From contig CAWCLO010000003.1 of NCBI GenBank assembly GCA_963796455.1, forward strand, positions 256,001 through 320,000: a DNA stretch of 64,000 nucleotides. Direction: 5' to 3'. The position numbers were made by a program, and so were the translations under genes. This DNA comes from Candidatus Sulfomarinibacteraceae bacterium. GTDB taxonomy: Bacteria > Acidobacteriota > Thermoanaerobaculia > Thermoanaerobaculales > Sulfomarinibacteraceae. The notes below the pieces were generated by a model, which was not told the origin of the DNA, did no database searches, and saw only the letters and a list, made by a program, of their open reading frames with translations. Shown here one piece after another: positions 2,277-44,847 of the stretch; positions within the stretch are counted from its first letter, which is position 1; each line of letters opens with the position of its first letter.

Positions 2277-2630
2277 TCACTTCTTCGGGTTCAAGAGCCG
2301 CCAGGTCATTGCACGGACCTGATCGAAGGCCATCATCGCTTTACTGGCTCCATTTCGACTGATCGCCCCGGCGTGGGCGAGGAGCTCCAAGTGGCTGTCG
2401 ACCTCTTTCGCGGAAGCGTAGGCGATTCTCCAATGGTTCGACCGGTCTCTACCGACTCGGCCGTGCCCTTCTGCCAGATTCGCAGGGACCGAACTCGCCG
2501 ACCGGATCACCTGATCGGCTATGGACTTCAGCGGAGCTGGAACCCTCATCACGATCTTGATCGCGATTCCTGCTGCTTCGAGGGCTTTCGAGTGGGCGAC
2601 GAGGTTGGTGTTCGTGGCGGCTGAGGACAT
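2277..2630 (-). CDS. Four helix bundle protein (23S rRNA intervening-sequence protein / Avd-like), 117 aa
   Basis: DQVIRSASSVPANLAEGHGR and IAYASAKEVDSHL family motifs; 107/117 aa identical to 14965-15318. Confidence 0.88.
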   Translation of the reverse strand: MSSAATNTNLVAHSKALEAAGIAIKIVMRVPAPLKSIADQVIRSASSVPANLAEGHGRVGRDRSNHWRIAYASAKEVDSHLELLAHAGAISRNGASKAMMAFDQVRAMTWRLLNPKK

Positions 2631-2766
2631 GGTCACGTCCGGGTCGTTCATGCCCATTCCCACAAGCCGGTGTGGTGGCCGATGTCAAGGATGCCCTGCA
2701 CCCTGCCTGTCCTTGACATCGGCCGCCCACCGGCTACCCCTTCTGTTGAACGACCCGGAGGTGACC
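2631..2766 (-). promoter_or_regulatory. Nested stem-loop leader with an anti-Shine-Dalgarno arm
   Basis: 2631-2650 pairs with 2747-2766 (19/20); inner inverted repeat 2665-2691 / 2710-2735. Confidence 0.6.
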
Positions 2767-4049: not shown

Positions 4050-4205
4050 CGGCCCCCGTCCGTTCCCGAAAGGGAGAAAGGGAGGGGAAAGGGAGAGGGC
4101 CCCACCACTCGATTCTGGATACTCGATGCTGGATGCTGCCACCGCTCCCATCCCAAAGGGAGAACCACCCGGCACCGATTTCTCCTGATGGAAACGACGC
4201 CCCCC

Positions 4206-4329
4206 GATGTCATCCTGAGCGGAGCCCCCCAGGGGCGGAGTCGAAGGATCTATGAGACGGACTGAAACGCCCGTGAACCGCAGATCCTTCGACTGCGGCC
4301 GCCGAAAGGCGCTCCCTCAGGATGACATC
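4206..4329. repeat. Long palindromic extragenic element (GATGTCATCCTGAG...CTCAGGATGACATC), copy 1
   Basis: 14-bp terminal inverted repeat plus inner IR AGTCGAAGGATCT/AGATCCTTCGACT; second copy at 36817-36973. Confidence 0.85.
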
Positions 4330-4527: not shown

Positions 4528-4712
4528 CTCCTCTGCTCCTCTGCTCCTCTGCTCCTCTGCTCCTCTGCTCTCTCTGCTCCTCTGCTCCTCTGCTCCTCTG
4601 CTCCTCTGCTCCTCTGCTCCTCTGCTCCTCTGCTCCTCTGCTCCTCTGCTCCTCTGCTCCTCTGCTCCTCTGCTCCTCTGCTCCTCTGCTCCTCTGCTCC
4701 TCTGCTCCTCTG
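4528..4712. repeat. Octamer tandem repeat (CTCCTCTG)x23
   Basis: 5 perfect units, one 9-nt unit, then 17 perfect units. Confidence 0.97.
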
Positions 4713-4794
4713 CTTCAACCGCTCGCATCCGATACCCGGATGCAGTAGGATCACGGGGCACACAGAGTGTCCGGAAAATGCCGCGGTTTGGGGG

Positions 4795-10254: not shown

Positions 10255-10550
10255 CCTGCGTCCGTGCCCGAATTGCGGCGGCAGCGGCAGTGTTCAGCGG
10301 CAGCGATCTCGTGTAATGACGGCGTGGTCACCTCCGGGTCGTTCAACGGATGAAACAACCGTTGTGGTGTAGGCGTCTCGCCTGCACACCGTGCGGCCGA
10401 GACGGCCGCACCACAAAGGCCGGAACTCCGAAGATGCGGGGGCTGTTCGCTGTCGCTGGCTCCCGTTCGCTGTCGCTGTCCCTGAATGCTGTCCGAGACG
10501 CTGTCTTGGCTATGAACGATCCTGCATCCTGAATTTTGCATCGAGCACCG
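10255..10550 (+). mobile_element. Gene-less copy of the modular element with a REP-like doublet as cargo
   Basis: Left motif 10268-10291, anti-SD 20-mer 10326-10345, hairpin doublet 10363-10415, right hairpin 10491-10510. Confidence 0.6.
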
Positions 10551-12662: not shown

Positions 12663-14432
12663 ATGGAAATGGATCGGCGCAACCGGATTGCTCAATGGGT
12701 CTTCGACTCGCGCGCGATTCTCGGACGATTCCATCTGTGGTTGGAAGACGTCGAAATCGAAAGCGAAGGAGTGTCCGAAACGGGCGATATGTCCTTTGTC
12801 GGCGGTTCGTTAGAACGAGCATTTGTGGTTGCGACCGCCGTCACCGCTCTCGGCACCAGGCTCTTTGGACGCTGGGGTGAGGGAGCGGATCTCGACAAGG
12901 CGGGAATCAACCGCGTCAAAAAGGACGCGGATGCGGTCTCGGCCTATGCGCTGTCCGAGGCATTGTGGTATCTCACCCGCAGTCTTCCGGAAAACCACGC
13001 CGTCATGATCTCCCTCGGCGAGGGCCTGATGCCGAAGGCCGGCGAGACTCCCGAAATGGGCTCGAACCCTTTGCTCGGGTTCGGCCGGGTCTATGCGCGG
13101 CCGCAGGTGGCGCGTTTCCTCGACCGAAGGGTCCACCGCCTGGTCAATGATCCGACTTACGAGTGGCCCGAGTTCTGGTTCGATCTCCAGAGTGCCGGCA
13201 TCACCATCTGGGGTGCTGCAGTGGATACTCTGGAAAACACATCCCGATTCGCCAAGGGCAGTCCAACCGGACCGATGACAATTCTTCACCTTTATGACCA
13301 ACCACTCAAGGTGGCACGGCCCTATGAGGGCTACATGGGCAATATCACCCTGCCTCGAGAGGTTGTCGACCAGGCCGCGGATCGATCCATTCTGATCGAC
13401 TATCGAACGCCCCGGGCCCGGGTCATGGAAGCGATCCGGGACACGTATCCTATGATCCGACCCGAAAATGTTCACGTCTGGACTCTGGGAGGACCGAGCC
13501 GCGAAAACCGCCTCTCGAACCTGTGGGCTGAGTGGCAGGAACTCGGCGCTCACCTCGTCGAAGATGGCTGGCCGATGCCCGGCACGAACATCCCGGTTTT
13601 CACCGAATCGGGAACCTACGCGCCGGCTTTTCGTGTCGGCACCTTCGAAGATGAAGACGGCGCCACCCATGTATTCATCTGCGATGGGTATGCGGCATCG
13701 GCGGAAGCCATGCAGGCGGCGAGTCTCGATCCGATCCTCGATCTCTCGACCTCGATGACCCTGTTTTCGTCCAGTTTCAAGGCCCCTGCGGATCGTGAGC
13801 GTGAGGTCATTGCACTGGACCCCGAGGCCGAAGATTTTGCCGATCAACTCGCTGCCACCCTTGAATCAGAGATCGATCCGGCCCTTGCCAGGGAATACAG
13901 CGAGAGCCTTCGCGGCGCTCGCGAAGCCTTGATGCCGGTCGACAAAAAGACGATCACCGCGGACGATTTCTTCCCTCTCAAACAGTGGCGGGTGCTCGCT
14001 CTCGCAGGCTATATGCTGCCCGATCCCTATACCGGCTCGAATGGTGTGGAACAGATCAGCGACGATCGTTTCAGGGTCACGACACGGGCGGCGACCCGCA
14101 ACGGCATGATCAACGTGACCCTCGTTCTTCGACTGATGGAGACGAAGGACCAGATGCAGATGGTTTTTTCACCCCTTCTCGATCGCTTTTATTCGGGTCA
14201 GGACCACACCACACGGGCGGTCAAGATCTCGGATTCAGGCAGGATCAGAAACGAATTGCAGACGTTGGCCTCAGAAGCGATCGAATTCCTGCCGGATGAT
14301 CGTATGTTGGTCAACTTCGGTTTGATCGACGATTCCGTGCTGCCTCCGGACAAGCGTGATCTCATCCGTGAAGTCCTGGTCTGGTACAAGAAGAACCACC
14401 CCACCTGGTTCAAGTGGCTCGAGATGAAATAG
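12663..14432 (+). CDS. Hypothetical protein, distant class II fructose-1,6-bisphosphatase (GlpX)-like
   Basis: ISLGEG...NPLL, AVDTLENT..FAKG and EGYM resemble GlpX VIGEG...APML, AVDPLEGT..AKG and DxYM; GGGAGG RBS. Confidence 0.55.
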   Translation: MEMDRRNRIAQWVFDSRAILGRFHLWLEDVEIESEGVSETGDMSFVGGSLERAFVVATAVTALGTRLFGRWGEGADLDKAGINRVKKDADAVSAYALSEALWYLTRSLPENHAVMISLGEGLMPKAGETPEMGSNPLLGFGRVYARPQVARFLDRRVHRLVNDPTYEWPEFWFDLQSAGITIWGAAVDTLENTSRFAKGSPTGPMTILHLYDQPLKVARPYEGYMGNITLPREVVDQAADRSILIDYRTPRARVMEAIRDTYPMIRPENVHVWTLGGPSRENRLSNLWAEWQELGAHLVEDGWPMPGTNIPVFTESGTYAPAFRVGTFEDEDGATHVFICDGYAASAEAMQAASLDPILDLSTSMTLFSSSFKAPADREREVIALDPEAEDFADQLAATLESEIDPALAREYSESLRGAREALMPVDKKTITADDFFPLKQWRVLALAGYMLPDPYTGSNGVEQISDDRFRVTTRAATRNGMINVTLVLRLMETKDQMQMVFSPLLDRFYSGQDHTTRAVKISDSGRIRNELQTLASEAIEFLPDDRMLVNFGLIDDSVLPPDKRDLIREVLVWYKKNHPTWFKWLEMK

Positions 14433-14829
14433 TCGCTGGATACTCGATGCTGGATACGTCGAGATCGTCAGTCTCGCCACACAATTACCAAATCTCTTCG
14501 ATTGATCTGATCTGCTGATTGTGCACTGTTCCGGTAGCCAAATCGCGAATTAGGAATCGAATATCCAGTATCCAGTATTACTGCTGTCAGAACAGACCGT
14601 CACCTGAAGTTTCCCGCCCGACAACACTTGGTTTACAGGTTGGTTTTTGGCATATCCGGTTGGCGGTTGCCCGTGCCCGCGTCCGCGTCCGCGTCCGCGT
14701 CCGAATTGCAGCGGCAGCGACAGTGTCCAGTGTCAGCGATCAGCGATCAGCGATCAGCGGCAGCGGCAGCGGAGGAGCGGCAGCGGGCGGAGCGGCAGCG
14801 GCAGCGGTCAGGAGTCCAGGCGACGAAGT

Positions 14830-14966
14830 GGCCACCTCCGGGTCGTTCAACAGAAGGGGTAGCCGGTGGGCGGCCGATGTCAAGGACAGGCAGGGTGCAG
14901 GGCATCCTTGACATCGGCCGCCCACCGGCTTGTGGGTATAGGCATGAACGAACCGGAGGTGACCAT
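14830..14966 (+). promoter_or_regulatory. Nested stem-loop leader covering the GGAGG RBS
   Basis: 14830-14849 pairs with 14945-14964 (18/20); perfect 26-bp IR 14861-14886 / 14905-14930 with an 18-nt loop. Confidence 0.65.
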
Positions 14967-15318
14967 GTCCTCAGCCGCCACGAACACCAACCTCGTTGCC
15001 CACTCGAAAGCCCTCGAAGCAGCAGGAATCGCGATCAAGCTCGTGATGAGGGTTCCAGCTCCACTGAAGTCCATAGCCGATCAGGTAGTCCGATCGGCGA
15101 GTTCAGTCCCCGCGAACCTGGCAGAAGGGCACGGCCGTTTCGGTAGAGACCGGTTAAACCACTGGAGAATCGCCTACGCCTCGGCGAAAGAGGTCGACAG
15201 CCATTTGCAGCTCCTCGCCCACGCCGGGGCGATCACCCCGAACGGAGCCAGTGAAGCGATGGACGCCTTCGATCAGGTCCGTGCGATGACCTGGCGGCTC
15301 TTGAACCCGAAGGAGTGA
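14965..15318 (+). CDS. Four helix bundle protein (23S rRNA intervening-sequence protein / Avd-like), 117 aa
   Basis: DQVVRSASSVPANLAEGHGR motif; GGAGG at 14955-14959; paralog of 2277-2630. Confidence 0.9.
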   Translation: MSSAATNTNLVAHSKALEAAGIAIKLVMRVPAPLKSIADQVVRSASSVPANLAEGHGRFGRDRLNHWRIAYASAKEVDSHLQLLAHAGAITPNGASEAMDAFDQVRAMTWRLLNPKE

Positions 15319-15470
15319 GTGCTGTTCGCTGTCCCTGCCGCTGATCGCTGGCGCTGATCACTGTCGCTGCCGCTGACTCCTGTTCGCTGACGCTGTCCCT
15401 GAACGCTGTCCGAGACGCTGTCTTGGACAAGTGTGATCCAGCATCCAGTATCCCCTGGCGGATCGAAGTC

Positions 15471-15875
15471 TCATTTCACCTGAAGAGTTTCGAGCGTCTC
15501 TCGAAGAGTCGGGGTCATTCGTACCGGCCGACCAGTTGTGTTGTCGACGCAGGCAAGAACAGTCATTGCAACAGCTGCCACTTCACCGTCCACCGTCACC
15601 ACGTATTCGAAGGTGAAGGAAGCTCCTCGGATTTCGCCCACCCGCAGCCACACCCTCACATCGCCGTACAACCCCACAGGCCGTTTGAAGTCGATTTCCA
15701 GGCGTTTGACAAAAAACGGCACATCCATCGCCTCGCGTCCGCCAAATCTTTGCAGCCAGACTTCTGATCGCGCCTGTTCGATGTAGCTCGCAAAGACCGC
15801 GTTGTTGACGTGGGCAAAGGCATCCAGATCCCGCCACCGCACCTGAATCGGACATGAAAATGGATAGTCTTTCAT
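15471..15875 (-). CDS. Acyl-CoA thioesterase (4HBT/YbgC hotdog family)
   Basis: VRWRDLDAFAHVNNAVFASYIEQAR motif. Confidence 0.92.
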   Translation of the reverse strand: MKDYPFSCPIQVRWRDLDAFAHVNNAVFASYIEQARSEVWLQRFGGREAMDVPFFVKRLEIDFKRPVGLYGDVRVWLRVGEIRGASFTFEYVVTVDGEVAAVAMTVLACVDNTTGRPVRMTPTLRETLETLQVK

Positions 15876-36589: not shown

Positions 36590-37215
36590 CCCGGATGATG
36601 CAGGATTCAAGATCACACTCATCCATGACAGCGCCTTGGACAGCGATCAGGGACGGCGACCCGGATCGGCGGACAGCGTCAGCGTCCGGTCATCAGCGAC
36701 AGGAATCGGCGGCAGCGAACAGCAGACCTTCGATGGTGGAAAACACCTTCTATGGATCCTCGCTCTCACGGTGACCCATAGCTGTAGGGATTATTGAGCT
36801 GGTTGAATACACTCAAGATGTCATCCTGAGCGGAGCCCCCACAGGGGCGTAGTCGAAGGATCTATGAGATGAAACGGAAAGAACCTCGCCCGCAGAACCT
36901 GCCCTGAGCGAGCAGCGCGAGTCGAACGGGTCCTTCGACTGCGCGCCGAAGGCGCTGCGCTCAGGATGACATCGGGAGGCGACATTCGTTTGCGTGCGGA
37001 ATCCGTGACGGGTGGCTCTCGCTGAAGACGGCCGCTGTTGACTGAACGCTGAACACTGACCGCTGCCCCTGTTCGCTGTTACCTGACGCTGGACACTGCC
37101 GCTGGCGACTGTTCGCTGCCGCTGCCCCTGATCGCCGTCCGAGACTCTGTCTTGGACAAGTATGATCCAGCATCCAGCATCCAGCATCGAGTATCGAGTA
37201 TCGAGCATCTTGCGC
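36590..37215. mobile_element. Composite element: two facing right-end modules enclosing a long palindrome
   Basis: Right hairpin on minus strand 36621-36641 and on plus strand 37137-37157; CAGCG/CGCTG flanks; palindrome 36817-36973. Confidence 0.5.
36817..36973. repeat. Long palindromic extragenic element, copy 2
   Basis: Shares about 50 nt GATGTCATCCTGAGCGGAGCCCCC..AGGGGCG.AGTCGAAGGATCTATGAGA with 4206-4260. Confidence 0.85.
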
Positions 37216-39054: not shown

Positions 39055-39345
39055 ACCTCTTGGCTCCATTCAGGGACAGCAATCAGGTGCGGTGACGAAC
39101 TGACTACATCCGGGTCGTTCAACAGACGGAACAGTCGCTGTGGTGTTGGCGTCTCGCCTGCACACCGTGCGGCCGAGACGGCCGCACCACCAAGATCGGA
39201 GCCCCGAAGAAGTGAGGGCTGTTCGCTGTCCCGGCCGCTGATCGCTGTTTTCGGTCGCTGCTTCCTGTCGCTGGCCGCTGTTCACTGTCCCTGTCGCTGA
39301 AAACTGTCGCTGCCGCTGCAATTCGGACACGGACGCGGCACGAAG
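39055..39345 (+). mobile_element. Gene-less copy of the modular element with a REP-like doublet and a remnant of the four-helix-bundle 3' end
   Basis: TCCGGGTCGTTCAACAGA 39109-39126; doublet 39139-39190; CCGAAGAAGTGA plus downstream flank 39204-39247; left motif inverted at 39303-39326. Confidence 0.6.
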
Positions 39346-44449: not shown

Positions 44450-44559
44450 GGGGCGACTCGACCGGATTCAGAGGGACCGTGTGGCATCCTGCAAAGTATA
44501 GAGGGATCGGGTTGCTCCCGCCCAACCGGACACCGGATCCACCTACCACCGCGAGAGAA

Positions 44560-44847
44560 TTTCGGATTTCGAATTTCGAAATTGGGATTTCGGAATTCGG
44601 ATTTCGGACTATTGGCACGTCAGCCATTTGCGGAGGGTCGCGGGAGAAAAGGGGTTCGGTTCAGACCTTACAAGTCCTCAAATGGCAGAAAGGTGGAGGG
44701 GAAGGCGAAAGTGGGTTGCCATCCATTCACGTTCCGGATCGTCCTCACATCTATTGCGATAGCGATTTCTGAAGTGGCTTTCGCGGAAATCCGAAATCCG
44801 AAATCCGAAATCCGAAATCGACCTCCCTTTCTCCCTTTCTCCCTTTC
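44560..44847. repeat. Inverted pair of heptamer repeats (TTTCGGA)n / (TCCGAAA)n plus (TTTCTCCC)n
   Basis: 44560-44608 versus 44787-44818, enclosing about 180 nt of apparently non-coding sequence. Confidence 0.85.

Follow-up and report, generated by a model that had tools for sequence, protein, structure and literature searches.

What does a long nested hairpin do when it stands directly in front of a small protein gene, with its outer stem closing over the ribosome binding site? The question is raised by a locus in the window, the whole 64,000-nucleotide stretch of a Candidatus Sulfomarinibacteraceae genome that was analysed, where the gene for a 117-aa four-helix-bundle protein (14965..15318, plus strand; PF05635/TIGR02436, related to XCC0516, 2gsc) follows such a leader. 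The original prediction saw in it either a translational lock, opened by processing, by protein binding or by transcription starting inside the hairpin, or an invertible segment of about 95 bp. Here we set out the structure and its history within a mobile cassette, and then weigh what its conserved bases could be for.

A nested hairpin leader in a multicopy cassette

The outer stem joins an outer left arm (14830..14849, plus strand) to an outer right arm (14945..14964, plus strand), the latter of which contains the Shine-Dalgarno (SD) sequence GGAGGTGA (14955-14962) and ends just before the ATG at 14965-14967. Originally described as 20 bp, this stem is present with 18 of its 20 positions paired, the two mismatches being C.A and G.A. 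The inner stem is as described, 26 perfect base pairs with an 18-nt loop, its arms lying at 14861..14886 and 14905..14930 (both plus strand) around the apex loop at 14887..14904. An internal loop separates the two stems, with its left side at 14850..14860 and its right side at 14931..14944. As RNA the leader folds at -95.3 kcal/mol (z -10.2; 0/200 shuffles equal it), and as DNA it reaches a z of -11 to -13 on either strand (0/200 shuffles equal z -13), both strands of the copy at 14830-14964 folding equally well. The Rfam check proposed for the leader was run, and no model matches the window at gathering score. In six loci compared with Rfam, the matches were two sub-threshold miRNA models outside the leaders and one Acido-Lenti-1 in flanking sequence; at L069:1243-1289 an Acido-Lenti-1 motif above gathering score (RF01687) sits just 5' of a cassette leader.

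The hairpin had been compared with one other copy, copy 1 (2625..2766, minus strand, ahead of a gene at 2277-2630 on the same strand). That copy shares the layout, but its SD sequence is mutated to GGACG and its inner stem is imperfect; and instead of two copies the genome holds 68 full leaders, dispersed over chromosomal contigs. A bulge, often with a mismatch too, is the usual form of the inner stem, and the perfect form occurs in 1/68 copies, the one at 14861-14930.

Leader and gene lie within an 857-bp cassette (14579..15435, plus strand) made up of IS4-type terminal inverted repeats (14579..14597, plus strand, and 15417..15435, minus strand), simple-repeat arms, the hairpin leader and the four-helix-bundle gene. 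A probable 9-bp target duplication encloses it, the left copy of which (14570..14578, plus strand) matches 15436-15444 at 8/9 positions and falls inside a heptamer array; exact 9-bp flanking repeats accompany 20/62 distinct end pairs, a count blurred by targets that are mostly heptamer arrays. The family consensus of the terminal repeat agrees over all 18 nt with an end of an autonomous IS4 element from a genome of the same genus (L158), whose transposase matches NF033592 with 251 bits against a cut-off of 115. With the L158 transposase as query, no cognate IS4 transposase was found in the genome, which is 90.5% complete; the sole PF01609 gene in the genome has different ends and was rejected as the cassette's transposase. 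No ISL3 transposase was found, and the cassette contains no site-specific recombinase.

The site of the cassette is polymorphic, and orthologous empty sites exist. The gene is missing beside the thioesterase in 19/19 relatives, the gap measures 83-697 bp in the 17 of them that have both flanking genes, and in run X6 a contig lacking the cassette has 219 other bases between the flanks. In a number of relatives (L030-L034, L037, L038, L042, L043) the orthologous gap holds other tandem hairpin repeats and heptamer arrays, and some of these hairpin repeats carry a TGTCAAGGGTGGC-like box. On the left of the cassette, a 589-aa ORF at 12663-14432 has no Pfam or NCBIfam match, and in 17 relatives its C-terminal part lies beside the thioesterase at 64-78% identity. 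Further repeat families are found at 4193-4288, 4572-4714, 36818-36986 and 44559-44818; they comprise an 8-nt tandem array, inverted heptamer arrays and a palindromic repeat that occurs at two sites.

The family occurs in 34/61 related genomes, and its best named records are mostly from Thermoanaerobaculia or Ca. Sulfomarinibacteraceae. A covariance-model search of a further 120 genomes from the phylum, with 24 candidates scored in each, gave no match at 1e-6, and neither leader nor protein has a match among 72,556 plasmid records. Relative to replication, 28 copies are head-on and 40 co-directional (p 0.18), with no enrichment of the template on the lagging strand.

The gene is under purifying selection. 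Its 117-codon frame is kept in 57/68 copies, 66 of the 70 PF05635 matches in the genome belong to this subfamily, and pN/pS is 0.17 (pS 0.28) over 56 intact paralogs. These paralogs are mosaic, with 51% of site pairs failing the four-gamete test, and dN/dS is 0.50 for private changes against 0.14 for shared ones. Two in-frame starts are conserved: an SD sequence with an ATG equivalent to that at 14965 in 101/110 distinct leaders, and a second ATG seven codons upstream, at 14944, in 95/110. The equivalent of the 14944 ATG is the sole start in several distant relatives; in L135, L136, L138, L149, L151 and L152 there is no GGAGG and no downstream ATG, the ORF opens at the upstream ATG, and the mRNA is predicted to be leaderless with its first codons under the outer stem. 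An upstream ORF ending at a conserved TAG was considered and rejected, its frame shifting with linker length. The right linker was also rejected as an SD-like sequence; both linkers are purine-rich (0.80 and 0.75), so the right one need not be an SD.

The leader structure is selected. Pairing is conserved in paralogs and relatives, as the original prediction expected: 14/47 pairs have changed on both sides among 20 genomes, and in 24 more diverse leaders 24/45 pairs are compensatory, a value that 0/500 shuffles reach, with 9/21 outer-stem pairs changed on both sides in step with divergent RBS regions. Within the genome, stems and apex have a diversity of 0.011-0.030 (the unpaired apex, 0.013) against 0.12-0.21 in the linkers and a pS of 0.28. 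Stem mismatches number 0.4 per stem in broken copies (only ten) against 0.12-0.28 in intact ones. Across 20 genomes picked by BLAST, the invariant columns include the TAGC at the base of the inner stem, the AT left unpaired at 14944, and both TTGAC/GTCAA boxes save for one or two positions. The leaders counted here and below are related, several coming from one genome, and counts of them are not independent.

A gene-less sister family of 76 copies offers a natural comparison. The copy at 10317..10447 (plus strand) keeps the outer left arm, with a REP doublet replacing the inner hairpin, the SD arm and the gene; a second, at 39093..39220 (plus strand), carries the same doublet. In the absence of its pairing partner the outer left arm has a diversity of 0.186 in the 76 gene-less copies, against 0.029 in full copies. 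This family is a REPIN-like unit travelling within IS4-type ends, and palindromes near-identical to its doublet flank a 212-aa Y1 (RAYT-like) gene at C1:952748-952915. Free-standing copies and a flanked Y1 transposase, as expected of a REP or REPIN, are seen for the core of this family alone and not for the hairpin of the full copies.

Damage to the full copies is also patterned. Internal deletions affect at least 25 genome copies (e.g., C1:391086, C3:98089), often rejoined at short homology inside the gene, and most often they begin 17-18 nt inside the inner left arm (14/34 mapped breaks), which suggests that the hairpin forms in DNA in vivo. Two natural copies, C1:701473(-) and C3:166995(-), are without the left arm and inner hairpin, and with them the predicted promoter and the lock; the ORF is intact in one and frameshifted in the other. 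In eight loci (L051, L059, L065, L069, L072, L075, L117, L120) another hairpin, about 110 nt long, comes right after the conserved ATGAAC, at the predicted start site.

A candidate promoter on the folded minus strand

How, then, is the gene transcribed? A conventional promoter and terminator scan of 14400-15500 returned no promoter-like site, and so none facing the gene, and no terminator. Promoters of the host follow the pattern TTGAC-17-TAnnnT, with 74 sites at spacer 17 against 5-29 at other spacers. The inner right arm does contain a plus-strand TTGACA (14908-14913), which was rejected as an ordinary promoter, there being no -10 behind it. The earlier suggestion that transcription starts inside the hairpin is probably right all the same. 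The invariant bases fit a promoter of another kind, one carried by the minus strand when it is folded.

We propose, with moderate confidence, that the nested hairpin is a single-stranded DNA fold-back promoter for the four-helix-bundle gene of the cassette. When single-stranded or extruded, the minus (template) strand would fold so that its 3' arm displays TTGACA followed, at a spacing of 16-17 nt, by a fork at the inner-stem foot consisting of a paired T and an unpaired A. The internal loop would act as a transcription bubble that is already open, with the 20 bp of the outer stem as downstream duplex. From a start near A14944, the host sigma-70 polymerase would transcribe the 5' arm and continue through the SD sequence and ATG into the gene. 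An RNA made in this way would be without the anti-SD arm and could be translated. In duplex DNA the promoter is expected to be silent because its boxes face away from the gene and there is no T at -7, and in read-through RNA from host genes the outer stem would fold over the RBS.

In coordinates, the predicted -35 element is the TTGACA at 14878..14883 (minus strand; exact in 65/68 genome copies, with the TA 16 nt away) and the predicted -10 element is TACCCC at 14856..14861 (minus strand), in which T-12 (14861) is paired, A-11 (14860) unpaired and -7 is not T. The left side of the internal loop (14850..14860, minus strand) is the predicted non-template bubble, and the right side (14931..14944, plus strand) the predicted template-strand bubble, ending in A14944, the predicted +1, which also opens the upstream in-frame ATG. 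The outer left arm, which in read-through RNA is the anti-SD arm, is predicted to be the non-template strand of the downstream duplex on the folded minus strand.

These positions are conserved across leaders. The box is present in 94/110 distinct leaders, where the minus-strand hexamer reads TTGACA in 73/94 and TTGAC-N in 88/94, although its conservation is partly built in because the box was the search anchor. A TA lies 16 or 17 nt behind the minus-strand box in 86/94 (T 92% and A 98% over 66 contexts), while T occurs at -7 in only 9% of the same contexts and no TA is found at the plus-strand foot of the inner stem in the 94 box-bearing leaders. Among the 61 distinct leaders with the TA, T-12 is paired in 55 and A-11 unpaired in all 61; the bubble measures 11-12 nt on the non-template side in 52 and 12-14 nt on the template side in 54; and a pyrimidine precedes the conserved +1 A in 58. 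The TA is kept in 66/68 full copies against 2/75 gene-less copies.

The open complex of sigma-70 polymerase has duplex DNA to -12, a flipped A-11, a bubble reaching to about +2, some 20 bp of downstream duplex and a pyrimidine-purine start. The layout of the leader appears to match this complex, as a pre-opened promoter aimed at the gene, and a promoter on the folded minus strand would accommodate the bases that do not vary, namely TTGAC, the TA at the base of the inner stem and the AT left unpaired at 14944.

Several features also lean towards the minus strand as the strand that folds, and towards DNA as its form. Plus-strand A.C mismatches, which are G.T on the minus strand, exceed G.T about 2:1 (37 vs 18 cells in the inner stem, 16 vs 5 in the outer); counted as distinct events the asymmetry is weak, at 19 vs 9 (p 0.09) and 9 vs 5 (p 0.42). 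The minus strand is the better DNA fold in 77/110 and 62/68 leaders. In relatives the apex folds into a single mini-hairpin or a pair of them, whose triloops are often GNA or TNC (45/122 against a background of 11.5%), two thirds of them GNA on the minus strand, and GNA loops are stable in DNA. When ten 5' ends were tried, RNA from about 14944 had the initiation regions that were cheapest to open, at 2.3 and 7.2 kcal/mol.

What would make the cassette single-stranded is a matter of guesses, among them DNA uptake, chromosomal DNA transfer, repair gaps and cruciform extrusion. The genome has a comEC-type gene, which is too common to weigh as evidence, and we know of no single-stranded stage in IS4 cut-and-paste transposition. 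Tentatively, and with less than even confidence, we extend the proposal: a chromosomal mobile cassette may sense single-stranded DNA and make its Avd-like protein only then, the protein acting on that incoming or exposed DNA, and the GTCAAGGG...CCCTTGAC core may mark a large undescribed class of such promoters, spread over the mobile elements of many bacteria. The sensor would consist of a duplex -35, a -12/-11 fork junction, a 12-nt bubble and a 20-bp downstream duplex doubling as the RBS lock, and the protein would be made only when the cassette is single-stranded because the template strand would then fold into a pre-opened sigma-70 promoter.

Other readings of the hairpin

The most serious alternative is that the structure was selected mainly as RNA, as a lock on translation in read-through transcripts that is opened by RNase III or through the action of a protein, for which the product of the four-helix-bundle gene is a possible candidate. 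The lock of the original prediction does form in computation: opening the SD sequence costs 12-15 kcal/mol in read-through RNA against 2.7 without the 5' arm, and we regard this lock as a probable second effect of the hairpin. Covariation ties the outer stem to the RBS region or to the first codons, the left arm of this stem decays in the gene-less copies, where the partner is missing, a co-oriented gene lies upstream of 36/68 copies (by crude gene calls), and the genome encodes RNase III. There are precedents as well. IS10 has an RBS-sequestering stem. The RBS of the IS200 tnpA leader is likewise described as sequestered in a stem (PMC4513863), and the SD of the Coxiella intervening sequence (IVS) as removed by RNase III (PMC4990558). 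The lock alone, however, leaves the most conserved bases unexplained, namely the invariant TTGAC, the TA at 16-17 nt, the A that is unpaired in 61/61 leaders and the fixed size of the bubble. On the mRNA strand, moreover, A.C mismatches outnumber G.U pairs, some lineages (L124, L140, L154) have a flipped apex, and of the two copies lacking the whole anti-SD arm one has kept its ORF intact, the other being frameshifted. As the main reason for the structure, therefore, we think the lock unlikely, though deserving of attention; the fold-back promoter is preferred because the lock does not account for the TAGC foot, for the TTGAC boxes or for the AT that is left unpaired at 14944.

Two further readings seem to us improbable, and about equally so. 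The first takes the minus-strand TTGACA-16/17-TA as a weak ordinary promoter of the duplex, directed outward in the manner of pOUT, whose RNA, complementary to the anti-SD arm, could unlock or otherwise regulate the gene. Its -35 and spacer are right for the host sigma factor, and the RNA would open with the complement of the outer left arm; but the -7 T is missing, the unpaired A-11, the length of the bubble and the conserved pyrimidine-A on the other arm are left unexplained, and genes at the metagenome loci described below are mostly on the fold-back side. The second makes the hairpin a mobility site in DNA, a cruciform like those of REPs or diversity-generating retroelements (DGRs) to which a HUH transposase or the Avd-like protein binds, with no promoter. 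A GTAG/ATAG at the 5' foot of a bulged stem does resemble REPs as these are described in PMC8266576, the GNA mini-loops are of DNA type, the unpaired apex is conserved, a true REP doublet occupies the same place in the gene-less sister copies, and the excess of dN/dS among private changes is what would be expected if the gene aids the spread of its own copy. On the other hand, no free-standing apex occurs in the genome (68/70 have the gene and 2 are truncated), the cassette ends are IS4-type, this hairpin flanks 0/6 Y1 transposase genes, and there is no reverse transcriptase (RVT_1) match in the genome, at 90.5% completeness; a REP/RAYT origin of the inner hairpin is thus not supported, and retro-mobility was rejected.

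It is very improbable that the hairpin is a functionless palindrome, maintained by template-switch self-correction (a mechanism described in PMC3820800) together with gene conversion: the perfect inner stem of one copy in 68 does look like a single template-switch correction and the paralogs are mosaic, but 67/68 copies retain bulges and mismatches, diversity in the stems and apex is 10-25 times below that of silent sites, and the unpaired bases are invariant. That the outer repeats bound a 95-bp invertible switch can be dismissed almost entirely, since although inverted repeats exist and the apex is reversed in a few other lineages, 68/68 gene starts with an apex show one orientation (four more have lost the apex) and the contigs of eight runs, which drop rare variants, contain no strand-changing joint inside the hairpin.

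A wider motif, and comparison with known systems

A scan with the inner-stem core found 119 metagenome loci, and 79 of the 80 with full flanks are without a PF05635 gene, so the core would be a general device. A TA lies 16-18 nt behind TTGAC at 48/339 positions in these loci against 5.4%, an excess that is partly due to ordinary promoters (L185). Where the TA is on one arm only (27 loci), a Pfam-recognised gene is on the fold-back side at 10 loci but at only 3 on the ordinary side; the fold-back-side genes encode DUF7768 (four), resolvase (two), IstB, a ParA-like ATPase, DUF6429 and a PDZ protease, so that 4/10 represent one family. The hairpins of L185-L303, widespread and combining the GTCAAGGG...CCCTTGAC core with GNA mini-loops, lie 5' of ParA-like, IstB, resolvase, DUF7768 and DUF6429 genes, and we put them forward as a candidate broad class of single-stranded DNA promoters.

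If the fold-back promoter is real, the mechanism of single-stranded DNA promoters would extend from conjugative elements to chromosomal mobile DNA, and a built-in bubble could stand in for half of the -10 box. For the PF05635 family, that of the '23S rRNA intervening-sequence protein', it would be the first time that a condition of expression is known, and one that points to single-stranded DNA events. Neither the cassette nor a chromosomal or IS-borne single-stranded DNA promoter was found described in the literature covered (titles and abstract openings, with subscription papers mostly outside); the present analysis adds statistics on the fork junction and the bubble, a control with gene-less copies, a comparison with plasmid promoters and the wider motif family.

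As a mobile element, the cassette is like other non-autonomous IS4 derivatives in its IS4-type ends, probable 9-bp duplications, missing transposase and site polymorphism, and we take it to resemble the mobile insertion cassettes, IS4 derivatives with a passenger gene. It differs from them in carrying a PF05635 passenger under purifying selection, in its dozens of copies and in having its own fold-back leader. With the S23p intervening sequences in the 23S rRNA of Coxiella (PMC4990558) it shares a protein family held within inverted repeats. Unlike those sequences, the cassette is intergenic, its neighbours being protein-coding genes and not an rRNA gene, and it is multicopy, keeps a strong SD and has a promoter-like leader. 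With the IS200 tnpA leader it has in common a near-perfect SD that is buried in a stem when the RNA includes both arms, as computed for the cassette; the gene, however, is not a transposase, no conventional promoter faces it, and the conserved bases are on the opposite strand.

The closest likeness is to the single-stranded DNA promoters of plasmids. In Frpo-type elements, the transferred strand is described as folding into stem-loops that rebuild -35 and -10 boxes, inactive as duplex (PMC9849209, PMC12672017, PMC11541004, bioRxiv 10.64898/2026.01.09.698686). According to PMC12672017, PMC9849209 and PMC11541004, such promoters have been demonstrated in conjugative plasmids of enterobacteria, with predictions for other conjugative elements, and they fall into class 1 (Frpo1/2 and ssi1-3), class 2 (klcA/ardA, or ssp2) and class 3 (M.EcoGIX). 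The class 2 klcA/ardA hairpins belong to F and pESBL, with starts mapped in pESBL (PMC12672017). We folded the leading-region hairpins of both plasmids and assigned the boxes ourselves: on the klcA/ardA template strand a TTG-type box beside the apex is followed after 15-16 nt by TAAGAT, which lies at the stem foot, and beyond it come an internal loop and an outer stem; the coding strand has TAGCCGG at the stem foot.

The two systems thus have in common a long stem-loop upstream of a gene, a -35 near the apex and a -10 at the stem foot (both carried by the template strand on its 3' arm and facing away from the gene in duplex), and an internal loop followed by an outer stem. The motif beside the -35 is also similar, CCCTTGAC in the cassette leader and CCCTGGAC (Frpo1/2, at the matching place) and CCCTTGCAT in the plasmid promoters. 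They differ in detail: the cassette has an exact TTGACA and no -7 T, which class 2 and 3 boxes possess; its bubble is 11-12 nt against 3 nt in class 2; and its apex measures 18-50 nt against up to about 150. Only in the cassette does the outer stem overlap the SD sequence or the first codons, with a PF05635 gene downstream and a promoter activity that is predicted. Local alignment to the F and pESBL promoters gave a best score of 26 against a shuffled mean of 24-25, and the covariance model had no hit in the leading regions of F or pESBL. The cassette is chromosomal, in 68 copies and IS4-derived, whereas the plasmid promoters lie in leading regions. The likeness is architectural, and both by sequence and by location the cassette leader stands outside classes 1-3.
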